Source of the DNA: a virus
DNA length: 11,270 nt
Virus record (IMG/VR): IMGVR_UViG_3300045988_037349
Reading direction: 5' to 3' (one strand)
Shown here piece after piece: positions 1-11,270 of this stretch; position 1 is the stretch's first letter, and each line of letters starts with the position of its first letter. A program made the position numbers and the translations under genes. The notes below the pieces were generated by a model. That model saw only the letters and a program-made list of their open reading frames with translations. It was not told where the DNA came from and ran no database searches.

Positions 1-73
1 TAAGAGTAAATAAACATCAACATCCAAAGAATACGAATATGAATATCAAGAAGAAATATGCACAACGACCCCC

Positions 74-115
74 TTTTTAACATTTCCCAACACATTTTTA
101 ACATTCGCCAACAGA
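74..115 (+). repeat. Two tandem 21-bp direct repeats inside the ITR (mirrored at 11156..11197)
   Basis: TTTTTAACATTTCCCAACACA (74..94) is followed directly by TTTTTAACATTCGCCAACAGA (95..115). They match at 18 of 21 positions. The 21-bp period is about two helical turns. Confidence 0.9.
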
Positions 116-149
116 GTTTGGCACGCTTTTTGCATAGGCCGTGCCAAAC
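116..149. repeat. Perfect 10-bp inverted repeat with 14-nt spacer inside the ITR (mirrored at 11122..11155)
   Basis: GTTTGGCACG (116..125) and CGTGCCAAAC (140..149) are exact reverse complements. The spacer is CTTTTTGCATAGGC. Confidence 0.9.
119..135 (+). promoter_or_regulatory. Sigma-54-type -24/-12 consensus match, copy 1 (in ITR); promoter function unproven
   Basis: TGGCACG-CTTT-TTGCAT fits TGGCACG-N4-TTGCW at every conserved position. It is part of the conserved 21-mer TTTGGCACGCTTTTTGCATAG (117..137). Confidence 0.45.
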
Positions 150-189
150 CTCCAAAATCCATGAAAAAACACCTCATCGCAAAATAATT

Positions 190-253: not shown

Positions 254-285
254 TTTGCATTAAGCACACAAAGTAACTACCTTTG
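254..285 (+). promoter_or_regulatory. Bacteroidota-type promoter (-33 TTTG / -7 TAnnTTTG) for the early operon
   Basis: TTTG (254..257), then a 20-nt spacer, then TACCTTTG (278..285). An A-rich leader follows up to the ATG at 319. Confidence 0.65.
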
Positions 286-318
286 CAATATCAAAATTAA
301 AAACAAAACATTACAGCA

Positions 319-609
319 ATGAAGTACGGCATATATTTCACACGCTCTAATAGCAACGATGACTACCAAATAAGTACAAAAGGTTGGTACACTGAAACTC
401 CTTACAGCACATTGAAGGCAGCAAAGGCGGCCCTCGAAGGCATTGCGCTTATGCTTAACGAAGACTTTTACAAGTGTACTTACAAAGATAGGTTAACACT
501 TGATGGGGTTAGAACTGACAACATATCGCGAAAGGGTAAAGGTATAGTTATACTACCTCCACCTATAACAGACAAAGTAACATTTAAGATTTGCGTATAT
601 CACTACTAA
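319..609 (+). CDS. Hypothetical early protein (96 aa)
   Basis: First ORF downstream of the 254..285 promoter. It lies on the same strand as all recognisable genes. No motif recognised. Confidence 0.6.
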   Translation: MKYGIYFTRSNSNDDYQISTKGWYTETPYSTLKAAKAALEGIALMLNEDFYKCTYKDRLTLDGVRTDNISRKGKGIVILPPPITDKVTFKICVYHY

Positions 610-1700: not shown

Positions 1701-1740
1701 TAGGTAGGTAGCATATAACTACCTACCTATTTTAATTTTA
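1701..1740 (+). terminator. Rho-independent terminator or attenuator after the early block
   Basis: Perfect 11-bp stem TAGGTAGGTAG (1701..1711) / CTACCTACCTA (1719..1729) with a 7-nt loop. TTTTAATTTTA follows. Confidence 0.8.
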
Positions 1741-1745
1741 CAGCT

Positions 1746-2384
1746 ATGCCTAACAAGATAGGATACAAACAAAGCGTATTTACTGCAACTCAACGTACAG
1801 AGTTAAGGCAGGACATCATACAAAGCGTTGAGAGTAGCCCTGAACTAAGAAAGGAAGTAAGACGCGTATTTCAGCAAGCAAATAGACGTATACAGAATAT
1901 AGAAGACAAGGGGTTATTAAGTCCCGCAGTAACAGCCTTAAACAAAGGAGATATAAAAGGCTTTAGCAAATTTTCCGTTAGTGGCCAAAGTTGGGACGAA
2001 ATAAAAACAGAGTACGCAAAGGCAGTATCTTTTTTACGTCAGCCAACGAGTACCGCTCAGGGCACACGAACGTATAATGACCACATAAAAACCGCCTACG
2101 GACTTACCGACAAAGAATTTAATTTAATGGTCGGCAAGCTAAACGAAAAGCTAACAAGTTTAAGCGATAGCGATTTTGTAGAAAAATACCTAATGAAGTA
2201 CAAAGATTTTACGGGAGATTTGGAGCAAAGCGCACGAGACGCTAGCGAACAAATTGAAAGTGAAGCAGTAAGCCTACAAAACGCCATAGATAGCAATATC
2301 GAAAGCGAAGCCAACAAACTAACTAACGAAGTCGAAAGTGAGATTAACAGCATATTAGAAGAATTTAATAACTTCGGTTTATGA
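1746..2384 (+). CDS. Candidate terminal protein (212 aa)
   Basis: It lies immediately upstream of the protein-primed PolB and is coupled to it by an ATGA overlap (2381..2384), the same synteny as phi29 gp3-gp2. The N-terminal half is basic (RKEVRRVFQQANRRIQNIEDKG) and the C-terminal half strongly acidic and Ser-rich, like a DNA-mimicking priming domain. Sequence similarity to phi29 terminal protein is weak. Confidence 0.55.
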   Translation: MPNKIGYKQSVFTATQRTELRQDIIQSVESSPELRKEVRRVFQQANRRIQNIEDKGLLSPAVTALNKGDIKGFSKFSVSGQSWDEIKTEYAKAVSFLRQPTSTAQGTRTYNDHIKTAYGLTDKEFNLMVGKLNEKLTSLSDSDFVEKYLMKYKDFTGDLEQSARDASEQIESEAVSLQNAIDSNIESEANKLTNEVESEINSILEEFNNFGL

Positions 2385-4567
2385 AAAAGGTAAAATATGA
2401 GCAACATAGTGGTATTTATAAGGCAACCCACATAAAAGATATTTTGCAGTTGGCCGTAAATGACAAAAACGTAATAGGCAACAATAAAGGGTGTAAATTT
2501 TACAACGTGCCGTGCTCATTTGATATAGAAGTAAGTAGTTTTTATCGAGACGAAGACGGCAACACATACACATACGAGCAGTACACTAAATTAGGTGTAA
2601 AAATGGAAAAATGTGCTATTATGTACGTGTGGCAATTTGGCATAAATGGGTACGTAATAGTTGGCCGTACCTGGGACGAGTTTACAGCCATGTGTAACAC
2701 GATAGCGGCAACTTTGGAGTTATCCACAAACAAAAAACTAATAGTATATATACACAATTTATCATACGAATTCCAGTTTTTGCGCACCCTTTTTGAGTGG
2801 GACAAAGTATTTAGCATTGACCTACGCAAGCCATTATACGCAACTACAACAATAGGCTTAGAATTTAGGTGTAGCTACTTACTAAGCGGCTACAACCTAG
2901 CAAAGTTAGGCGAGCAACTACAAACGTACAAGTGTGCAAAAATGGTTGGAGATTTGGACTACACCAAAATACGCCACACACAAACAAAGTTAACCGATAA
3001 AGAGTTGCTTTACTGCGTAAATGACATAAAAGTAGTAATGAACTACATACAAGAGCAATTGGAGCAAAACAAGTTAATAACAAGATTGCCACTAACTAAA
3101 ACGGGTTATGTACGAAAGCATTGCCGCAAAGCAATGCTAAGCAAAAATGTTAACGGAAAAACCGCCCGAAATTGGGAATGTATTAATTTAATCCAATCAC
3201 TAACTATTTCGGGACTCCACGAATTTAACATGTTGCAAAGGGCTTTTAGTGGCGGATTTACCCACGGCAATGCTAACCACATAGACGAAATATGTGAAGA
3301 CGTTGCAAGTTACGATTTTACGAGTAGTTACCCGTATGTTATGGTGTCCGAAAAATTCCCTATGTCGAGAGGTATAAGGGTGCAACCCCGAAACATGAAA
3401 GAATTTGAGTACTACACAAGTAAGTACCTTTGTATTTTTGACGTGGAATTTACCAACATTTTTGCAAAAGAGTTGCAGGATAACCCTATAAGTGTATCTA
3501 AATGCTTTGTAAAAATAAATCACGTTGAAAATAACGGCCGCTTAGTATGTGCTGCAAAGGTAGCCACTACAATAACTAACATAGACTACAACATAATACG
3601 CAACTTTTACTCGTGGGGCGGTGTCCGTATCGGTGCAATGTATTGTTATAAGGCCGACTATTTACCAACTGATTTTGTACGTACCATTTTGGACCTATAC
3701 GAAAATAAGACAAAGTTAAAAGGCGTGCAAGGAAAAGAAGTGGAGTATTTAAATAGTAAGGAAATGTTAAATAGTTGCTATGGTATGTGTGTTACTAACC
3801 CGTTGCGCGATGAATTTGTATATGATGGGCAATGGGACGAAAACAAACTAACAGAAAGCGAAAAGGCCGAGATGTTACAGAAGTACAACGAAAGTAAAAA
3901 CCGATTTTTGTTTTACCCTTGGGGTGTTTTTGTTACTGCTTATGCAAGGCGCAATTTATTTACTGCAATCTACGAGGCAAAGCAAGATTACATATACAGC
4001 GACACCGACAGCATTAAACTACGTAACGCAGCAGCACATAAGCGGTATTTTGATATGTATAACAATGTAGTATATAACAAATTAAAGGCCGCGTGCAAAC
4101 ATCACAACATAGATTTTGACAAATGTGAACCCGAAACAATTAAAGGTGTTACAAAAACTTTAGGCGTTTGGGACTACGAAGGGACATACAAACGCTTTAA
4201 GACGTTGGGTGCGAAAAGATACATGGTGCAGGCAGAAAACGCCATAAACGTAGGCGGCAAAAGTTATGAATACAGCCTAACAATTAGCGGTGTAAACAAA
4301 AAGGCTGCAATACCCTACCTAGTTAAAAAGTATGGTGACAACATATTTAACGCATTTACGAATTATTTAGAATTTCCGTGCGAAGCCACGGGAAAGAATA
4401 TACATACATACATAGACTACAAAATAAGTGGTGAAGTAACCGACTACACGGGCAAAAAATGTACCTTTGCCGAAAACACGGGTGTACACCTAGAGCCAAC
4501 AAGTTACAACCTATCTTTAAGCGTTATGTACCTTAATTATTTGCAAGGCATAAAGCTAAAAGATTAA
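2381..4567 (+). CDS. Protein-primed family-B DNA polymerase (728 aa)
   Basis: All signature motifs occur in order: ExoI CSFDIEV, ExoII HNLSYEFQF, ExoIII YCVNDIKV, motif A YDFTSSYPYVM, motif B KEMLNSCYGM, motif C YSDTDS (nt 3995..4012), and KxY GAKRYM. Confidence 0.96.
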   Translation: MKKVKYEQHSGIYKATHIKDILQLAVNDKNVIGNNKGCKFYNVPCSFDIEVSSFYRDEDGNTYTYEQYTKLGVKMEKCAIMYVWQFGINGYVIVGRTWDEFTAMCNTIAATLELSTNKKLIVYIHNLSYEFQFLRTLFEWDKVFSIDLRKPLYATTTIGLEFRCSYLLSGYNLAKLGEQLQTYKCAKMVGDLDYTKIRHTQTKLTDKELLYCVNDIKVVMNYIQEQLEQNKLITRLPLTKTGYVRKHCRKAMLSKNVNGKTARNWECINLIQSLTISGLHEFNMLQRAFSGGFTHGNANHIDEICEDVASYDFTSSYPYVMVSEKFPMSRGIRVQPRNMKEFEYYTSKYLCIFDVEFTNIFAKELQDNPISVSKCFVKINHVENNGRLVCAAKVATTITNIDYNIIRNFYSWGGVRIGAMYCYKADYLPTDFVRTILDLYENKTKLKGVQGKEVEYLNSKEMLNSCYGMCVTNPLRDEFVYDGQWDENKLTESEKAEMLQKYNESKNRFLFYPWGVFVTAYARRNLFTAIYEAKQDYIYSDTDSIKLRNAAAHKRYFDMYNNVVYNKLKAACKHHNIDFDKCEPETIKGVTKTLGVWDYEGTYKRFKTLGAKRYMVQAENAINVGGKSYEYSLTISGVNKKAAIPYLVKKYGDNIFNAFTNYLEFPCEATGKNIHTYIDYKISGEVTDYTGKKCTFAENTGVHLEPTSYNLSLSVMYLNYLQGIKLKD

Positions 4568-4571
4568 AAAT

Positions 4572-4585
4572 GTTCCACGTGAAAC
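4572..4585. promoter_or_regulatory. Third copy of the CACGTG-centred 14-bp palindromic site
   Basis: GTTCCACGTGAAAC lies 10 nt upstream of the ATPase ATG, in the 28-nt gap between polymerase and ATPase. It is the reverse complement of the 914..927 site apart from one base. Confidence 0.5.
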
Positions 4586-4595
4586 AATCCAAACA

Positions 4596-5711
4596 ATGAA
4601 GAAAGAAGCAATAAAATTTTACTCGCTCGCAAATATCCTAAACAAAAAGGCAGATTATAACATAATATTCGGTGAGCGCTCAAACGGCAAAACATACGCT
4701 ACTTTGGCGTATGGTATAAAGAAGTATGTACAGACAGGGAAACAAATGGCCTATATACGTAGGTGGCGAGAGGATTTGCGTGGCAAACGTGCCGAAAGTC
4801 TGTTCGCTAACCACGTTGCAAACGGGTATATTGAAGAAGTAACAAATGGAGAATTTAACGCGGTATTTTACTTAGGTAGTAAATGGTATCTTGCAAAATA
4901 CGACCAAGAAAAGAAAAAGTACGTGCCCCAAACCACACCTTTTTGCTATGGCTTTTGCTTGTCAGAGCAAGAGCATGAAAAGAGTAGCAGTTACCCCAAC
5001 GTCACAACGATAGTATTTGATGAGTTTTTAACTCGTCGCTACTACCTACCCGACGAGTTTATGCTGTTTATGAACCTTTTAAGCACCATAATAAGACAGC
5101 GAGACGACGTTAAAGTATTTATGTTGGGTAACACGATTAACAAGTTTTGCCCCTACTTTACCGAAATGGGGTTGAAGCAAGTAACTAACATGGAGCAAGG
5201 CACTATCGACATATACAAGTTTGGGCAACATGGAGCAGTAGTAGCGGTGGAGTATTGCAGCACCATTGTCAAGCAAAAAGCAAGTAACAAGTATTTTTGC
5301 TTTGACAACCAAAACCTTGAAATGATAACCGGGGGCAAGTGGGAAATGGCGGCCTATCCACATTTGCCAACTAAATACACCCCCAAAGACGTGCTTTTTG
5401 TGTATTACATTGTATTCAACGAATACATTTTGCAAGGCAACATTATACAAGCAGGAAACGAAAACTTTACCTACATACACAGGAAGACCACCCCCATAAA
5501 AGACCCCGAAAACGCCCTAATATACAGCCTACACATGAACGGAAAACCGAACTACAAGCGCAAGTTAATAAGCAGTGCGACGTATTTAGAGAGTCAAGTG
5601 GCGCGGTATTTTGCCACCGATAAAGTATTTTACCAAAATAACGAGGTAGGCGAAATTGTGCGAAATTATTTAATGACATCCGCCAAAACCAACATTGTAA
5701 GTATCAAATAA
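4596..5711 (+). CDS. DNA encapsidation (packaging) ATPase, phi29 gp16 family (371 aa)
   Basis: Walker A is FGERSNGKT (nt 4671..4694). The segments AYIRRWREDL, EKSSSYPNVTTIVFDEF (Walker B) and LGNTINKFCPYF run parallel to my recollection of gp16 (GARGIGKS, IYVRRYKPEL, EKSNAYPNVSTIVFDEF, LSNAVSVVNPYF). Confidence 0.93.
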   Translation: MKKEAIKFYSLANILNKKADYNIIFGERSNGKTYATLAYGIKKYVQTGKQMAYIRRWREDLRGKRAESLFANHVANGYIEEVTNGEFNAVFYLGSKWYLAKYDQEKKKYVPQTTPFCYGFCLSEQEHEKSSSYPNVTTIVFDEFLTRRYYLPDEFMLFMNLLSTIIRQRDDVKVFMLGNTINKFCPYFTEMGLKQVTNMEQGTIDIYKFGQHGAVVAVEYCSTIVKQKASNKYFCFDNQNLEMITGGKWEMAAYPHLPTKYTPKDVLFVYYIVFNEYILQGNIIQAGNENFTYIHRKTTPIKDPENALIYSLHMNGKPNYKRKLISSATYLESQVARYFATDKVFYQNNEVGEIVRNYLMTSAKTNIVSIK

Positions 5712-5725
5712 TTTCTGTACATTTG
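5694..5725 (+). promoter_or_regulatory. Bacteroidota-type promoter for the structural block
   Basis: ATTG (5694..5697), then a 20-nt spacer, then TACATTTG (5718..5725). It spans the ATPase 3' end and the intergenic gap, with the -7 box ending 23 nt before the ATG at 5749. Confidence 0.55.
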
Positions 5726-5748: not shown

Positions 5749-5955
5749 ATGGATATTACACAAGTCACCCAAATAATTTCGAATGTTGGTTTTCCGATTG
5801 CTATGTGTCTAATAGTATTTTACTACATGACAAAGCACGATGAGCAGCATAAGGAAGAAACCGACAACCTACGTACTACCTTAGAGGATAATACCAAGGT
5901 ATTGAGCGAGTTAAGTACCCTAATTAAAACGTTGACGAATGGCAAAGAAAGATAA
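5749..5955 (+). CDS. Small single-pass membrane protein, YvrJ-like; candidate holin (68 aa)
   Basis: The N-terminus IISNVGFPIAMCLIVFYYM resembles the YvrJ family signature (xxNxGFPI plus a TM helix). The C-terminal tail is charged and looks coiled-coil. It overlaps the portal start by 17 nt. Confidence 0.6.
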   Translation: MDITQVTQIISNVGFPIAMCLIVFYYMTKHDEQHKEETDNLRTTLEDNTKVLSELSTLIKTLTNGKER

Positions 5956-6973
5956 CTTGTACCTAAAGTACCAAGAACAGATAAAAGACAAAGATAAAAG
6001 CGTAAATGGCTACATTCGCAAAATGTTAGCCATAACACAAGCAATGTTTGTTTACAAAGGTTTGCCCGAAACATTACCACAGAACACCCTTGAAAACCTA
6101 CTACAGACAAACGGCAATGTTTTTGTTACTGAGGTAGAAGGCAAATTATACGCTTTTAGTGGTGGCCTTGGAGGTGTCCCCAACGCGTACAATGAGGCAA
6201 CCGAATATATTGTAAGTAACCCCTATTTGAAACTCAACAAGTCGTACAAAATAGACGTTGAGGGCGTATTAATTAAAAACGATAGTGGCGCAAATAGCCT
6301 TTTGCCTATTTTTGGCAAATATGGTGTGTTGTGTAGTGATACGCTTGTGTCTCTTAACACATGCTCTGTTCTGTCTCGTATCACTATGTTAATAAGTGCG
6401 AGCGATGACAAGACAAAGCAAAGCGCGGACGATTTTGTAAATAAAATCATGCAGGGCGATTTTTCGGTAATTGGCGAAAACGCATTTTTCAAGGGCGTAA
6501 ACCTGCAAAGTATCAACACACAAAGCGCGAACCAAATAACGCAATTAATTGAGTTATTACAGTACTTCAAGGCGTCTGCATTCAACGAAATAGGCCTAAA
6601 CGCAAACTATAATTTAAAGCGAGAGCGGTTAAACACAAGTGAAGTACAAATGAATGTAGACGCCCTCAACCCTTATGTAGATAATATGTTGCAAGAGCGC
6701 AAAAAGGCAGTAGACAAGATAAACGCCATGTTTGACACTGAAATTAGTGTCGAGTTGGGTAGTAGTTGGGCTATACGCAAAGAAGAAAACAAAACCGAAA
6801 ACGAAGAAAATGAAGATAATAAAAATAATACTTCTGATAGTGGCGAAAGTGCTACTGAACAGAAAGAAGAGGAAGTAACAGAAACGGAAACCGAAATCGA
6901 AACGGACAAAGAAACGGACGAAGAAAAGGAACCCGAAACGGACAAAGAAACGGAAGAAAATGAAAATAATTGA
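5939..6973 (+). CDS. Portal / head-tail connector, phi29 gp10 family, with about 65-aa acidic C-terminal extension (344 aa)
   Basis: Blocks are collinear with my recollection of gp10: FVYKGLPETLPQNTLENLL vs FEWENLPPTINPSFLEKSI; FSGGLGGVPNAYNEATEYIVSNP vs [29 protein letters not shown] vs GVVIYNND; FNEIGLNANYNLKRERLNTSEV vs [20 protein letters not shown]. Confidence 0.85.
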   Translation: MAKKDNLYLKYQEQIKDKDKSVNGYIRKMLAITQAMFVYKGLPETLPQNTLENLLQTNGNVFVTEVEGKLYAFSGGLGGVPNAYNEATEYIVSNPYLKLNKSYKIDVEGVLIKNDSGANSLLPIFGKYGVLCSDTLVSLNTCSVLSRITMLISASDDKTKQSADDFVNKIMQGDFSVIGENAFFKGVNLQSINTQSANQITQLIELLQYFKASAFNEIGLNANYNLKRERLNTSEVQMNVDALNPYVDNMLQERKKAVDKINAMFDTEISVELGSSWAIRKEENKTENEENEDNKNNTSDSGESATEQKEEEVTETETEIETDKETDEEKEPETDKETEENENN

Positions 6974-7529
6974 CCTATACCCCGACCCTAAAAAGGGGCT
7001 ATTTACCGCGGTATTTAAGCCCAACTATCCAACGGAATACGCCGCAATATTTGGCGACCTTGATAGTGTGGGGCTTGATACGCTTGTACTACTCAACTAC
7101 AGCGAGCGAGAGTGTATAAACACCATAACACAAGCAAACGCCAACGAGTATATAAAAAATATCATTGCGTTGAGTGTTAATAATTGGGTACGCGTGGCGA
7201 GTGCCTATAACGCTCAATATGATGTACTTAAACCCGTACAGCAGCAAACAACGAGAGAAGATGAGACCACCGAAAGTGCGAACAATAACAACACAAATGT
7301 TTCGTCTAATAAGCCATACAACGAAACAGATTTTGTAGAGTACGACAAAGATAGTACCACGTACGACAATACACGTACTAACAATGTTGTAAGCACACAA
7401 AAGGTTGTAGGCCTTGGCTCAAAATCACCCACGGACGAACTAACAAAAGAAATAGAATTTAATTTGCAGAATTGGCGAAAAAGCATTATTTTTGCTATTA
7501 TAAATGATATAACTAAATCAATATATTAA
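6960..7529 (+). CDS. Virion-associated protein of unknown role (189 aa); candidate lower collar/adaptor or scaffold
   Basis: It sits between the portal and capsid genes and overlaps the portal by 14 nt. The centre is an N/T-rich low-complexity segment. No motif recognised, so the role is inferred from position only. Confidence 0.4.
   Translation: MKIIDLYPDPKKGLFTAVFKPNYPTEYAAIFGDLDSVGLDTLVLLNYSERECINTITQANANEYIKNIIALSVNNWVRVASAYNAQYDVLKPVQQQTTREDETTESANNNNTNVSSNKPYNETDFVEYDKDSTTYDNTRTNNVVSTQKVVGLGSKSPTDELTKEIEFNLQNWRKSIIFAIINDITKSIY
7463..7494 (+). promoter_or_regulatory. Bacteroidota-type promoter for the major capsid gene, embedded in the upstream CDS
   Basis: TTTG (7463..7466), then a 20-nt spacer, then TATTTTTG (7487..7494). 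This is a full consensus. The -7 box ends 39 nt upstream of the ATG at 7534, with an AT-rich leader. Confidence 0.65.
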
Positions 7530-7533
7530 TTTT

Positions 7534-8706
7534 ATGAACGTAAAACAGATTTACACCCTTGTAAACTCAGTATCTAAAGAGGTTTTAGGTACTGAGGAAC
7601 TAGTAAGCGAGGATTTAACAGGGCTTGTCGACCTTGGCAACGAAGTTTTTAATCAAAACGCGGTAGACAATTACGTTAAATCTCTTGTTAACCATATTGG
7701 TAAGGTGGTTTTTGTAAATCGCCCCTATGCTGGTAAAATTCCGTCTGTACTTATGGACGCTTGGGAATTTGGTTCCGTGCTCGAAAAGATTAGTGCAGAC
7801 TTACCCGAAGCCGTTGAAAATAAAACGTGGGAGTTAACCGACGGGGTGGATTACTCACAAGATGTATTTCATAAGCCAAAAGTTACAGCTAAATTTTTTA
7901 ATAGCAAGGTAACTTTTGAGGTTCCCGTATCTATCACCGAGCGACAAGTTAAGGAGAGTTTCAGCAACGCTGAGCAACTTAACGCATTTCTTTCGATGAT
8001 TTATAACGCGGTGGAGAAGTCCATTACCATTAAGACGGACGCGTTAATTATGCGCACTATTAACAATATGATTGCGCAAACTTTACTCGCTGATAGCGCG
8101 GCCTTTGGCGGTGATGCTGCACCCGACTACACAAGCGCAAGTACCGCTCGTTGCGTTAACTTGCTAAAGTTGTACAACGATAACAAAGGTACTACTTTGA
8201 CCGCTGAAAAGGCACTGACCGACCCCGATTTCATCAAGTTTGCAAGTTATACTATCGGCTTGTACACTGATAGACTTGCAAGTATTTCGAGCGTCTTTAA
8301 TATTGGGGGTAAGCCACGATTTACGCCGCGCGAAAACTTGCACGTTGTGTTACTGTCAGATTTCGAGAAAGCCGCCCGCGCGTATCTCTACAGCGATACA
8401 TACAACAAAGAGCAAGTATTATTACCGAATGCCGAAAGTGTTCCATTTTGGCAGGGTAGCGGAACAAAGTACGATTTTGCAAGCACGGCACATATCAACA
8501 TTAATGAGACTGGCGGAAAACCCGTTAAGATTAGCGGTGTACTTGGTGTTATGTTCGACCGTGACGCATTAGGCGTTTGCAACCTCAACCGCCGCGTTAC
8601 TACTAACTACAACGCAAAGGCGGAGTTCTTCAACAATTACTACAAGTTTGACGCTGGCTATTTCAATGACACTAACGAAAATTTCGTAGTTTTCTTTGTC
8701 GCTTAA
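7534..8706 (+). CDS. Major capsid protein, phi29 gp8 family (HK97 fold), 390 aa
   Basis: Blocks are collinear with my recollection of gp8: [19 protein letters not shown] vs [40 protein letters not shown] vs [30 protein letters not shown] vs [23 protein letters not shown] vs LEAVLVDKDWFMV. A dedicated promoter and a strong terminator flank it, as expected for the most abundant virion protein. Confidence 0.85.
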   Translation: [390 protein letters not shown]

Positions 8707-8725: not shown

Positions 8726-8760
8726 AAGGTGGTGTAATATACACCACCTTTTTTAATTTT
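8726..8760 (+). terminator. Rho-independent terminator or attenuator after the capsid gene
   Basis: Perfect 11-bp stem AAGGTGGTGTA (8726..8736) / TACACCACCTT (8740..8750) with a 3-nt loop. TTTTAATTTT follows, so with the TT closing the stem the U-tract has 6 T. Confidence 0.85.
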
Positions 8761-8766
8761 ACTACT

Positions 8767-9207
8767 ATGATACTATATAACTATAAGGGACAACCTAACA
8801 CGATTAACAAAGCGCTTACCCCATTAGGCACTATTAACGTTGCTTTGCGCCCCGAACTAAATGTACATAATCCAACGTTAAAAATACAAATGCCCCCTAA
8901 TATATACGGGTTTAATTACGTTTACTTGGAGGATTTCAGAAAGTACTACTTTGTAGACAATTTTAGATACGTAGGAGGTAATACGTGTTTACTTACTTTG
9001 TCGCTTGATGTACTACAGACGTACCAAGATGTAATACTACAAAGTACCGCGTTAATAGTGGAGAGCGACCACGCAAACCGCGATTTGTCTGTAAATAGCA
9101 ATGTTTTTGACGTTTTCCCTAAAACAGATATTTTGCGGTTTCCTACTTCTAACCTTTTCGATAAGAAGGGCAGCATAATAATGGTAACACTAAAAGGTAA
9201 TAAATAG
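8767..9207 (+). CDS. Tail knob N-terminal-domain homologue (phi29 gp9 N-terminus-like), 146 aa
   Basis: FNYVYLEDFRKYYFVDNFRYVGGNTCLLTLSLDVLQTYQDVILQSTALIVE runs parallel to my recollection of the gp9 N-terminus: [56 protein letters not shown]. Confidence 0.6.
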   Translation: MILYNYKGQPNTINKALTPLGTINVALRPELNVHNPTLKIQMPPNIYGFNYVYLEDFRKYYFVDNFRYVGGNTCLLTLSLDVLQTYQDVILQSTALIVESDHANRDLSVNSNVFDVFPKTDILRFPTSNLFDKKGSIIMVTLKGNK

Positions 9208-9208
9208 T

Positions 9209-11059
9209 ATGGCAGATTATGTTTTGGGTAATTTGGTTAATGATATACCAAATACCACACTAACACAGCGAGACACAGGTAAAACGGAAACGGACAACCA
9301 AGGAGTTACACGCACAATTACAGAAATTACAATAACTTGTGATGATGGGTTCTACTCGCTTAAAGATTGGCAAAACGATTTAAATGGGAAATTTACGTAT
9401 AATGACGCTTTAACGAGTGGCACGCAAGAAGTAAAAACAAAGGTAAACAACTTAAATGTAGGGTGGACTTTCAGCGGCTCTACAAACGCGCTGCCTAACG
9501 TAACAAATAACATAGAGAATACCACCTACAAAATAAGCAAAGCACAACAAGACGTAAGTGTTAACGTTATAGTTGTGACAGCTAACGCAGGGTATCAGTT
9601 TGACGATCCGCCAACGTGCAAATATACTGACGGGTTCGGAGGTGACGCAACAGCAAAAGGTGTTATAAGTCAAAACAAACAAAGCGCAACTTTTACGATA
9701 GAAGACGCCTACAACAAGCGGCCTAACTTCGTTCTAATTGGTGACGTTGTGGAAGGTACGCCAACGATTACCATAACAAATAACTTAGACGGCACAAACG
9801 CTACATATACATACGATAACGGCACTTTTAACATAACAATTAAAGGTACAAACAGCGGCTATGTTATACAAGTGGCCAACGTAACGTACAAAGATAACGG
9901 GGGTGTTTCGCATACTGATAACATGACAATTGCGAGCAGCGACACCGCAACTATCGCATTAACAAATGTAGACACCGCTACACCCGTTGTTATTAATGGC
10001 ACTTACATTAAGGCGATACCCGTAAAAAACACCCTATATAATTGTACGGCCGAAAATATACCAACATATTATACCGCTACCGACAAAGTTAATGTTACAC
10101 TACAAGCAAATGAGGGTAGTAAGTTTACAAGCGAGACAGACCCACCCGAAATAAGATATACTGACGAGTTCGGGGGTGTACAATATAAACGTTTTACGCT
10201 AAGCGATGAAGGCAAACGGGGTAGCATAACACTTGACATTGCAACCGAATGCCCCAAAACTGAGTACATCGAATTTCGTGGAGGGGCAAAAGTTGATGTA
10301 CAGCCAAGCATTAAAAATTATGGTGCTATCAATGTGTATGTAGTTACGCTTGACAACCTCGAAGCGTTTAGCAAAAAACGTTACTTCACAGAAAGCGGCA
10401 CTTTTATTACCTATGAACAAGACCTAAGCGAGTATGTGAACAGAATTAAGCGTATTTATACACATATACCAACAAAAGGCACTGACCGAATAAAATGCGG
10501 CAACTACGATACCGAGATAAACGCAGATTTGCCCGAAAAGGATATAATAACGCTTGATTTTGGCAGTATCACGATACCACGCAAAGATAATACCACACTT
10601 GATAAAGATATGATAATCGAGGTATTTTTGCCGTTCGTGGGTATTGTTTCGCTTTCTTCTGACTACGTTGGTAAATCTGTAAAATTGGTGTACGATATAA
10701 ATGTAATTAGCGGTGACGGGGTTTGTAAATTGTTGGATAATAACGATTTACCGATACAATTACATAACGTACAACCTAATACCGATGTACTTTACACTAC
10801 TTACGACACGTCCGTAATAGGTAACGATAGGTGGGACGCACAAAATTTATATGGCTTTGAGCCGTTTGTGAGGCTGAATTACTACACCAATGAGTACAGC
10901 GATACACGCGGCAACGACTACAAAAAAGTTGTACTTTCGCACTGTGCAAAAGGTTTTTACAAGTTCGATGAGATTGTAAATAATGATATAGACAACGTAC
11001 CAAAAAGTGAGTACACCGAAATTGTTAATTTATTGCAAAGCGGTGTGTTTATAGATTAA
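9209..11059 (+). CDS. Tail protein (616 aa): about four tandem beta-rich repeat modules plus a gp9-like tail knob C-terminal region; probable receptor-binding component
   Basis: It starts 1 nt after the upstream stop. The repeat motif is DPPxx[KR]YTD[GE]FGG, seen as DDPPTCKYTDGFGG and TDPPEIRYTDEFGG. The C-terminal segments IEVFLPFVGIVSLSSDYVGKSVKLVYDINVISGDG and EYTEIVNLLQSGVFID resemble my recollection of gp9 segments [23 protein letters not shown] and DLQEIRTIFDNGITLW. Confidence 0.6.
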   Translation: MADYVLGNLVNDIPNTTLTQRDTGKTETDNQGVTRTITEITITCDDGFYSLKDWQNDLNGKFTYNDALTSGTQEVKTKVNNLNVGWTFSGSTNALPNVTNNIENTTYKISKAQQDVSVNVIVVTANAGYQFDDPPTCKYTDGFGGDATAKGVISQNKQSATFTIEDAYNKRPNFVLIGDVVEGTPTITITNNLDGTNATYTYDNGTFNITIKGTNSGYVIQVANVTYKDNGGVSHTDNMTIASSDTATIALTNVDTATPVVINGTYIKAIPVKNTLYNCTAENIPTYYTATDKVNVTLQANEGSKFTSETDPPEIRYTDEFGGVQYKRFTLSDEGKRGSITLDIATECPKTEYIEFRGGAKVDVQPSIKNYGAINVYVVTLDNLEAFSKKRYFTESGTFITYEQDLSEYVNRIKRIYTHIPTKGTDRIKCGNYDTEINADLPEKDIITLDFGSITIPRKDNTTLDKDMIIEVFLPFVGIVSLSSDYVGKSVKLVYDINVISGDGVCKLLDNNDLPIQLHNVQPNTDVLYTTYDTSVIGNDRWDAQNLYGFEPFVRLNYYTNEYSDTRGNDYKKVVLSHCAKGFYKFDEIVNNDIDNVPKSEYTEIVNLLQSGVFID

Positions 11060-11065
11060 CGGCCT

Positions 11066-11082
11066 ATGCAAATAGCGTGCCA
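11066..11082 (-). promoter_or_regulatory. Sigma-54-type consensus match, right-end internal copy (minus strand, facing inward)
   Basis: The reverse complement reads TGGCACG-CTAT-TTGCAT. The full 24-mer TTTGGCACGCTATTTGCATAGGCC differs from left copy 1 by a single base. Confidence 0.35.
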
Positions 11083-11107
11083 AATGTTTTTGGTACGCTA
11101 TTTTTTT
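11073..11107 (+). terminator. Rho-independent terminator after the last gene
   Basis: 12-bp stem TAGCGTGCCAAA (11073..11084) / TTTGGTACGCTA (11089..11100) with one G-U wobble and a 4-nt loop. Seven T follow (11101..11107). The left arm is part of the right-end internal 21-mer copy. Confidence 0.75.
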
Positions 11108-11116
11108 GTTTATTCG

Positions 11117-11270
11117 TGGAGGTTTGGCACGGCCTATGCAAAAAGCGTGCCAAACTCTGTTGGCGAATGTTAAAAATGTGTTGGGAAATGTTAAAAAGGG
11201 GGTCGTTGTGCATATTTCTTCTTGATATTCATATTCGTATTCTTTGGATGTTGATGTTTATTTACTCTTA
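11117..11270. repeat. Right inverted terminal repeat (154 bp, perfect)
   Basis: Exact reverse complement of 1..154. Together with a protein-primed PolB, this is the classic architecture of terminal-protein-capped linear genomes. Confidence 0.97.
11136..11152 (-). promoter_or_regulatory. Sigma-54-type consensus match, right ITR copy (minus strand, facing inward)
   Basis: This is the ITR mirror image of 119..135. It lies 70 bp from the right-end internal copy, against 71 bp between the two left-end copies. Confidence 0.35.

Follow-up and report, generated by a model that had tools for sequence, protein, structure and literature searches.

The IMG/VR virus record IMGVR_UViG_3300045988_037349 (11,270 bp, the whole of which is called the window here) was analysed for the expression signals of the phage that it encodes, in particular for three sites resembling Bacteroides promoters, located before the early genes (P_E), before a small holin-like gene (P_holin) and before the major capsid protein (MCP) gene (P_MCP). 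Our analysis indicates, with a probability of roughly 0.87, that the window is a complete, Astrithrvirus-related phi29-like podovirus which carries sigma-ABfr promoters, is translated independently of Shine-Dalgarno (SD) sites and has a gut Bacteroidales host. A sequence-only reading of the same DNA had taken the expression signals to indicate a Bacteroidota host. The conservation footprint of the promoters, the loss of SD sites together with the leader pattern, the control phages and spacers of clustered regularly interspaced short palindromic repeats (CRISPR) all agree with it, and the CRISPR evidence is independent of the expression signals. The host call, which that reading had left open, no longer needs to be so at the level of phylum or order. 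No RNA polymerase gene is encoded in the window and therefore its signals would have to suit the transcription and translation machinery of the host.

Three predicted promoter sites of the Bacteroides type

The sites were located by direct reading and regular-expression searches, and significance was assessed from 1000 dinucleotide shuffles. All three are on the + strand. P_E (254..285) consists of TTTG at 254-257, a 20-nt spacer and the -7 box TACCTTTG at 278-285, which ends 33 nt before the ATG at 319; the predicted transcription start site (TSS) is at ~290 and the 5' untranslated region (5'UTR) is ~29 nt long. P_holin (5694..5725) is present in a 37-nt intergenic gap and has ATTG at 5694-5697, a 20-nt spacer and TACATTTG at 5718-5725, 23 nt before the ATG at 5749 (predicted TSS ~5730, 5'UTR ~19 nt). 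P_MCP (7463..7494) has TTTG at 7463-7466, a 20-nt spacer and TATTTTTG at 7487-7494, 39 nt before the ATG at 7534 (predicted TSS ~7499, 5'UTR ~35 nt), and is embedded in the last codons (I-I-F-A) of the preceding gene, g11. The sequence-only reading had described all three as fitting the promoter consensus, which is correct for the three -7 boxes and the 20-nt spacers but not for the -33 element of P_holin, where 5694-5697 reads ATTG instead of TTTG and only TTG (5695-5697) matches. The n positions of all three boxes are without G and hence compatible with TAHHTTTG. The predicted 5'UTR lengths fit the published Bacteroidota medians of 24-32 nt (PMC9723704).

The bipartite motif TTTG-N19-21-TAnnTTTG was observed twice in the window as compared to 0.11 expected (P=0.005), and its TTG version four times as compared to 0.33 expected (P=0.001). 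Of the 10 boxes on the + strand, three precede a start codon by 15-60 nt (P=0.017). A scan for sigma-70-type promoters gave 38 sites, with the best scoring at most 10/12, against 28.6 +/- 6.5 expected; this is the chance level and not informative.

Relatives of the window were sought in IMG/VR, where 340 were found and 80 fetched, and the footprint counts rest on this fetched set. The 80 genomes are syntenic and belong to three subclades (A, B and C) with ~94%, 85% and 80% MCP identity. At P_holin, an exact TAnnTTTG is present before the orthologous gene in 78/78 relatives, in intergenic sequence; its flanks have diverged and the variation within the box is confined to the n positions (TACA, TATA, TATC). 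At P_E, TAHHTTTG followed by an ORF (open reading frame) is found in 65 of 67 genomes (the window and 66 relatives), with TTG 17-23 nt upstream in 65/65, and the box is kept even where the first ORF is non-homologous. The P_MCP box precedes the capsid gene in 78 of the 80 relatives. A box was never seen in the relatives upstream of the connector gene, g11, g4 or g5, while additional boxes occur in clade C before the terminal protein (TP) gene (54/70) and before g13 (64/80).

Among 140 unique anchored promoters, the frequency of G is 0.00 at both n positions, and AT-rich blocks are present about one and two helical turns upstream. Promoters of Flavobacterium johnsoniae have a refined TAHHTTTG consensus, a weak -33 element and AT tracts at -18/-28 (PMC6847099), and the G-free n positions, weak -33 elements and AT-rich blocks of the clade match this pattern. 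Bacteroidota sigma-ABfr promoters in general are alike in these features and in their ~20-nt spacer (PMC6847099, PMC9723704). Cellular genes and the larger phages of Bacteroides (B40-8, crAss-like) are the known settings of such signals; here they are found in a protein-primed phi29-like genome.

Several observations weigh against the interpretation of these sites as promoters. TAnnTTTG alone is not enriched on the + strand of the window (10 observed vs 6.3 expected, P=0.11) and is commoner on the - strand (19 observed vs 10.9 expected). The -33 element of P_holin is imperfect, and clade C has weak or shifted -33 elements and has lost the TTTG of P_MCP. The block of the TP, protein-primed DNA polymerase (PolB) and ATPase genes and the tail genes have no box upstream in the window, and their expression would need read-through or an unrecognised promoter. 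Promoter activity at the three sites is predicted from their sequence. The box counts on the two strands and the imperfect -33 element would be in keeping with the idea that the three motifs arose by chance in an A/T-rich genome and have no promoter function, SD sites being missing for compositional reasons only. However, the boxes are exact at orthologous positions in almost all of the genomes while their flanks diverge and their n positions vary, and no boxes are present before the internal genes of the operons. This footprint effectively refutes a chance origin, which we regard as extremely improbable, and argues that the three boxes are functional signals.

The location of P_MCP in coding sequence deserves separate consideration, as protein constraint could explain part of its conservation and thereby weakens the case for this site. 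It might be proposed that the host belongs to the Bacteroidota but that only P_E and P_holin are real, the P_MCP box being kept for the I-I-F-A residues of g11. The adjoining W-R/K and I-I-F-A residues are indeed conserved in the protein, and the loss of the -33 TTTG in clade C would be consistent with such a proposal. Nevertheless, the box shows no variation at its two synonymous wobble positions (ATT, TTT) in 78/80 relatives while the wobble at the n position is either T or C, and therefore selection appears to act on the DNA motif. The spacing to the ATG is within the usual Bacteroidota 5'UTR range (PMC9723704), and the most abundant structural protein would plausibly need a promoter of its own. 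We therefore consider it unlikely that the box is kept mainly for its coding role, the argument for selection on the DNA motif being less strong at P_MCP than at the two intergenic promoters.

Translation initiation without SD sites

The mean free energy (dG) of the duplex between the leaders of the window and the anti-SD sequence is +0.45 kcal/mol, and 0 of the 14 starts reach -4.5. The background of the genome is -1.26, i.e. stronger than at the start codons themselves. The lack of SD sites is therefore even more pronounced than was stated in the sequence-only reading, which had counted 13 start codons where 14 ORF starts are present. For 797 starts of the relatives the mean dG is -0.57, with 2.9% reaching -4.5.

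The leaders show a specific pattern. Among 646 unique leaders, the frequency of A is 0.59-0.77 at positions -14 to -11, a further A peak is present at -6, and T is nearly absent at -3. The frequency of G at -15 to -5 is 0.10 in the clade leaders as compared to 0.35 in the SD-using relatives, and the number of upstream ATGs per leader is 0.033 as compared to 0.245, a ~7-fold depletion. The A-peak, the low G content and the scarcity of upstream ATGs are features published for the Bacteroidota, whose SD-independent leaders are likewise rich in A at -11 to -14 (the A-peak), at -6 and at -3 and contain few ATGs.

The cousins of the window in Gammaproteobacteria are ideal controls because of their similar GC content (32-40%). 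Their mean SD dG ranges from -4.05 to -7.04, with 54-80% of genes at or below -4.5, and TAnnTTTG was found upstream of 0/48 annotated starts in four of them. Strong SD sites in equal-GC cousins, and SD complementarity in the window below its own background, argue against a compositional effect. Bacteroides phage B40-8, taken as a positive control, has an SD dG of -1.05, an A-peak of 0.68 and 8 boxes vs 1.7 expected, while the SD-poor Mycoplasma phage P1 and cyanophage Syn5 are without the A-peak (0.38 and 0.32) and have zero boxes.

The two signals change together among the relatives. All contigs with at least 74% MCP identity to the window are SD-less and all of them, except one 4-kb fragment, have a box before a gene; contigs with at most 66% MCP identity mostly have strong SD sites and no more than one gene each with a box upstream. 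In the MCP tree the SD-less genomes are monophyletic and nested among the SD users, which suggests that SD sites were lost and boxes acquired in a single switch.

CRISPR spacers against the phage clade

A search for homologs of the tail protein brought up a 15.3-kb contig (Logan ERR4398789_681, hereafter L116) in which the right inverted terminal repeat (ITR) of a clade-A relative runs straight into the 32-nt repeat GTCGCCCCTCGCGTGGGGGCGTGGATTGAAAC, followed by a 183-nt leader and cas2-cas1-cas4-cas7-cas8c. Intact loci have a leader of this length too. Beyond the repeat, the sequence matches positions 87-151 of the window perfectly over 65 nt, and the join can be understood as the assembler walking through the newest spacer. 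The corresponding protospacer is located at 87-121 on the + strand of the window, preceded by the protospacer-adjacent motif (PAM) TTC at 84-86 (84..121 together), and has 0 mismatches to this leader-proximal spacer; a mirror copy is present on the - strand in the region of the right ITR (11150-11187). TTC is the PAM of type I-C systems.

Intact loci of the same system are present on contigs up to 62 kb in length, with Cas8c copies that are 96-99% identical. They contain cas3-cas5-cas8c-cas7-cas4-cas1-cas2 as judged by Pfam, a 32-nt repeat, spacers of 32-35 nt and 6-37 repeats per array. The cas operon, the repeat, the spacer size and the TTC at the window protospacer are those of a type I-C system and its target. 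Arrays of intact loci from other samples hold 64 unique spacers, 5 of which match the phage clade, with TTC or TTT as PAM. In clade C, one of them matches the majority of 59 genomes at 34/34 positions (47 of the genomes within one mismatch). A second protospacer was found in the window at 6465..6498 on the - strand (PAM TTT), with 3 mismatches to another of the five, a spacer which is present in two independent arrays of the same locus. The comparison with CRISPR spacers, which the sequence-only reading had proposed as a check on the host, thus yields six spacers of a Bacteroidota-type type I-C locus that match the phage clade. In 57 of the 59 clade-C genomes the spacer with the 34/34 match (L121 15410) faces TTT and not TTC, and these may be circulating PAM-escape variants.

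The affiliation of the owner of the locus can be judged from its genes. An S8 protease encoded near the locus carries a C-terminal type A sorting domain of the type IX secretion system (T9SS) at residues 661-724 of 724 (TIGR04183, 31.8 bits with a cutoff of 23; Pfam PF18962, 25.8, just under the cutoff of 27), and a TonB-dependent receptor adjoins it. T9SS is restricted to the Bacteroidota/FCB group, and therefore the owner of the CRISPR locus is a Bacteroidales-type organism. The 19 host genes at the locus are SD-less (mean dG -0.24), their leaders have an A-peak of 0.59, and the GC content of the contigs is 44-47%. The locus in one metagenome-assembled genome (MAG) is fused to a phage-like segment, all of whose matches to records with named hosts are to phages of Bacteroides (21) or Porphyromonas (10). 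Literature searches for the CRISPR repeat and for GCA_037271335.1 returned nothing.

In the MAG contig L120 (GCA_037271335.1 JAYAWG010000001.1, locus 11926-21905), cas7 breaks off at 137 aa and is followed by a fused siphophage-like segment with genes for Dam methylase, ThyA and tail proteins, which is ~67% identical at the nucleotide level to the Bacteroides 'hankyphage' p00 and related phages. No CRISPR repeat is present at the junction, for which prophage insertion and misassembly are both possible.

Relationship to cultured phi29-like phages

The closest cultured relatives of the window are phages of the Astrithrvirus group, namely Salmonella phages astrithr, Astrid and assan, DU_PP_III of Pectobacterium, Phanie of Acinetobacter and K58 g2 of Vibrio, together with phages of Shigella and Enterobacter. 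Amino acid identity to the group is 54-60% for the MCP and 40-45% for PolB, with 57% and 45%, respectively, for A. astrithr. The ~11-kb linear genomes with ITRs are common to all, as is the gene order: TP-like, PolB, gp16 ATPase, small transmembrane (TM) protein, connector, a protein of ~185 aa, MCP, a ~146-aa N-terminal part of the tail knob and a large knob/tail protein. In contrast, the cultured members infect Gammaproteobacteria, use strong SD sites and have no TAnnTTTG boxes, the window being opposite in its signals, and their early genes are present at the right end on the opposite strand, whereas those of the window are on the left and co-directional. A megablast search of the whole window against 50,697 phage records returned nothing, and because of this absence of nucleotide-level similarity the window does not belong to the genus Astrithrvirus (demarcation about 70%). 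By these comparisons, it is a new lineage related to Astrithrvirus but outside the genus.

The sequence-only reading had considered a Bacteroidota host unexpected as characterised phi29-like phages infect Firmicutes. The MCP and PolB comparison indicates that this generalisation is outdated, the closest cultured relatives being phages of Gram-negatives, and a Bacteroidota host is less surprising than had been held. The best PolB and capsid matches with known hosts, the taxonomy of which had also been suggested as a check, are Astrithrvirus-group phages of Gram-negative hosts.

With phi29 and the Salasmaviridae the window shares a protein-primed PolB, ITRs, the gp16 ATPase, the gp10 connector and the phi29-fold MCP. 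Those phages differ in their Firmicutes hosts, strong SD use, genomes of ~19 kb, early and late genes on divergent strands and a single-protein tail knob. They also have a known packaging RNA (pRNA), while an Rfam scan of the window gave no match to one at E<=1; pRNA sequences diverge fast, and this is no evidence of absence.

Phi29-like phages with Gram-negative hosts are already listed in a review published in 2024 (Evseev et al., PMC11476376), where Bacteroidales are suggested as the host of another phage, the faecal MAG 'Bacteriophage sp. isolate 2692_55609' (cluster 30), a phi29-like genome of ~12 kb with a split tail knob. Compared by its description only, it belongs to another lineage than the window; its MCP and PolB are nearest to those of Amedibacillus phage AD70P2 (PMC11476376), to which the MCP of the window is only ~31% identical. 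Its host was predicted from protein homology and not from expression signals or CRISPR spacers (PMC11476376). Our literature search for a Bacteroidota-infecting phi29-like clade returned nothing beyond this study. Several further searches were made. When phages with named hosts were searched with the tail protein by tblastn, weak Astrithrvirus-group matches only were obtained, tblastn of the MCP against 72,556 plasmid records (where phages may be deposited as isolate plasmids) gave no match, and exact protein clusters of the window proteins are all named 'hypothetical protein' and carry no taxonomy. The N-terminal half of the tail protein is variable, and its homologs are all on ~11-kb phage contigs, none of them cellular; it was this search that led by chance to the 15-kb L116.

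In this way a large clade of uncultured gut phages, which belong to the smallest tailed phages there, is assigned to a host order. The clade is represented by the 340 IMG/VR matches, and some contigs reach 250-550x coverage, for example 549x in ERZ1743990. It extends the phi29-like protein-primed lineage to the Bacteroidota by CRISPR spacers and expression signals, beyond protein homology. The clade can be viewed as a compact natural experiment, in which synteny and proteins are kept with cousins of SD-using hosts, Gammaproteobacteria among them, while all 14 ribosome-binding sites and the recognisable promoters have changed. It illustrates the changes that an 11-kb genome has to undergo for a host jump between phyla. 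In practice, attempts at isolation should plate on Bacteroidales, and the promoters and leaders, which are native, short and conserved, might serve as parts for expression in Bacteroides.

Alternative hosts

Some evidence speaks against a Bacteroidales host or limits what the spacers can tell. A CRISPR spacer shows exposure and not necessarily productive infection, and the join in L116, in which a second repeat is not seen, is an assembly artefact that we interpret as a spacer. The MAG bins that contain the relatives are mostly labelled Firmicutes or Melainabacteria. Lastly, in a 33.9-kb contig (ENA ERZ27272161 k141_156845, locus 1-2620; hereafter L110) the phage, from window position 143 onwards, is fused to a truncated SecA of an SD-using, Clostridia-like organism, next to genes preceded by strong SD sites (AGGAG, AAAGGAGG).

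The bin labels of relatives found in GTDB MAGs were examined as host evidence and set aside. They are scattered over Prevotella, Scatosoma, Staphylococcaceae, Melainabacteria, Tissierella, Phocaeicola, Cryptobacteroides and many Clostridia, and they are unreliable in both directions because they contradict the signals of the contigs themselves; contigs binned as Phocaeicola and Cryptobacteroides (at most 66% MCP identity) use SD sites. L110 was considered as a possible integration and judged to be a metagenome assembly chimera with a Clostridia-like genome, because the join cuts SecA in the middle of its ORF and the phage at position 143, inside the ITR.

A host in another SD-poor gut lineage (Melainabacteria/Gastranaerophilales or Mollicutes), the signals being merely Bacteroidota-like, would account for the two relatives (74-75% MCP identity) which were assigned to MAG bins of Gastranaerophilales or Melainabacteria. 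SD sites are also used sparingly by Cyanobacteria and some Mollicutes, and Mycoplasma phage P1 is also a protein-primed podovirus, of 11.7 kb. However, the bin labels are demonstrably unreliable, and neither P1 nor Syn5 has the A-peak or TAHHTTTG boxes. Reports of the motif in the literature that could be searched are confined to the Bacteroidota, the -7 box of Chlorobi being a different one. Such a host is further contradicted by the six-spacer CRISPR locus, which lies beside a T9SS cargo gene and a phage segment of the Bacteroides/Porphyromonas type. We consider it very unlikely.

A Firmicute host, as in the classical phi29-like phages, would be favoured by the labels of most MAG bins and by L110, where this very phage is joined to the truncated SecA and a TSCPD gene with SD dG values of -7.3 and -11.8. 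The junction, however, bears the signature of an assembly chimera, and other contigs with the same capsid protein are short, stand-alone and phage-sized. A phage with 0/14 SD sites would be expected to translate poorly in an SD-dependent host. Gram-negatives are the hosts of its closest cultured relatives, which have the split tail knob in common with it, and its 189-aa protein occupies the slot of the shortened lower collar of diderm-infecting members (PMC11476376). The sequence-only reading had advanced a YvrJ-like, Firmicute-associated membrane protein as a counter-argument to a Bacteroidota host; the similarity is a 12-residue Pfam match of 15.4 bits against a cutoff of 29.5 and not significant, and the small TM gene in question is uninformative on this point because it is kept at the same position in Salmonella phage astrithr. 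A Firmicute host therefore appears highly improbable, and a gut Bacteroidales bacterium remains our preferred host.

Genome organisation and proposed expression

The window is a complete linear genome in which 14 ORFs are present, all co-directional (+). The ITRs (1..154 and 11117..11270) are 154 bp in length and perfect reverse complements of each other; in the relatives their size ranges from 80 to 350 bp. Five small early ORFs (319-609, 621-872, 946-1155, 1152-1322 and 1334-1687) have no family match; g4 and g5 are kept clade-wide while g1-g3 are variable. They are followed by the TP-like gene (1746-2384; 33% to astrithr gp02, E 1e-11), which is assigned to the TP slot by position, the protein-primed PolB (2381-4567; Pfam PF03175 2.8e-12, phrog_1907 6e-71, 45% to astrithr gp03) and the gp16-type packaging ATPase (4596-5711; PF05894 3.6e-22, 52% to astrithr gp04). 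Downstream of P_holin are the genes for the small TM holin-like protein (5749-5955; PHROG holin 7e-12, matching astrithr gp05), the gp10-type connector (5939-6973; PF05352 2.1e-14, matching astrithr gp06) and the 189-aa protein g11 (6960-7529). The last has no detectable match to astrithr gp07 and is by position only a putative shortened lower collar, the assignment made for this slot in the group by Evseev et al. (PMC11476376). The phi29-type MCP (7534-8706; Pfam PF25622 1.6e-54) is followed by a split tail knob with a 146-aa N-terminal part (8767-9207) and a 616-aa distal protein (9209-11059), homologous to astrithr gp09 and gp10 and Phanie gp9; this layout has been described for phi29-like phages of Gram-negative hosts (PMC11476376). 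With its protein-primed PolB, ITR, TP-like ORF, gp16 ATPase, gp10 connector and phi29-fold MCP, the genome can be classified from its predicted proteins as that of a phi29-like podovirus. Zero tRNAs and zero Rfam families were found in scans of the window.

In the expression scheme that we propose, the phage would replicate by protein priming and rely on host transcription and translation. The Bacteroidota primary sigma factor sigma-ABfr would recognise the -7 TAnnTTTG and the weak -33 TTTG. P_E would drive the early genes, P_holin the holin-like, connector and 189-aa protein genes, and P_MCP the capsid gene. Hairpin terminators at 1701-1729 and 8726-8750 (T1 and T2) would partition the transcripts, the TP-PolB-ATPase and tail genes probably being expressed by read-through of them. 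Translation would start without SD pairing, by way of A-rich, G-poor and ATG-free leaders. The host would be a gut Bacteroidales bacterium, one such lineage of which holds the type I-C spacers. The TSS positions, recognition by sigma-ABfr, read-through of T1 and T2 and productive infection of the CRISPR owner are the predicted elements of this scheme.

Lysis, tail and possible helper dependence

In astrithr, Phanie, K58 and DU_PP_III an endolysin gene is present directly after the tail gene. In contrast, tblastn of the astrithr, Phanie and K58 endolysins against the window and 86 SD-less relatives returned nothing, and no endolysin was recognised in the window by Pfam or PHROGs. A tail fibre or spike was likewise not recognised in the window. 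In the account given in PMC11476376, which cites Pourcel et al., Acinetobacter phage Phanie is infectious only when docked on the contractile tail of a co-infecting myophage. The Phanie-like split tail knob and the absence of a recognised fibre or spike and of a homolog of the Astrithrvirus-type endolysin would fit a similar way of life, and by analogy we tentatively suggest, as a rather doubtful possibility, that the whole SD-less clade is helper-dependent like Phanie. If so, an abundant gut Bacteroidales mini-phage would depend on larger Bacteroidales phages, in the manner of a satellite, for its entry and perhaps also for lysis.

The early ORF g3 (69 aa, ATG at 946) has a hydrophobic N-terminal segment ending in LQSC, which resembles a lipobox. 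Its product may be a small lipoprotein, for example a spanin-like or superinfection-exclusion protein.

Terminators and repeated elements

The intrinsic terminator T1 (1701..1729, + strand) has an 11-bp stem followed by a T-run and is located between the early block and the TP gene; in clades A, B and C its stem has been preserved through compensatory changes. T2 (8726..8750, + strand) lies downstream of the capsid gene and is also conserved with compensatory changes. A terminator-like hairpin, T3 (11070..11103, + strand), follows the last gene. The hairpins of T1 and T2 are both followed by the same string, TTTTAATTTTAC (1701-1745 and 8726-8766 together with the hairpins), and an ATG is present 5-6 nt later. 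In clade C, a -7 box of the form TAACTTTG is located directly 5' of the equivalent hairpins. Transcripts from that box would begin in the 5' arm of the hairpin and escape termination, which would amount to an overlap of promoter and terminator.

A 14-bp palindrome, GTTYCRCGTGRAAC, occurs at 888-901 and 914-927, before g3, and at 4572-4585, in the 28-nt gap before the ATPase gene. Clades A and B have kept it, with 0-2 copies per site, and it is missing from clade C. A dimeric regulator might use it as an operator, or it could serve as a non-canonical promoter element.

A 19-mer, (C/G)CTATGCAAA(A/T)AGCGTGCC, is present in four copies, two near each end of the genome (120-138, 191-209, 11063-11081 and 11133-11151). 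The inner copies lie outside the perfect ITR, and the same pair is found 71 nt apart in L116. The 19-mers are possibly binding sites for a factor associated with the origin or the terminal protein.

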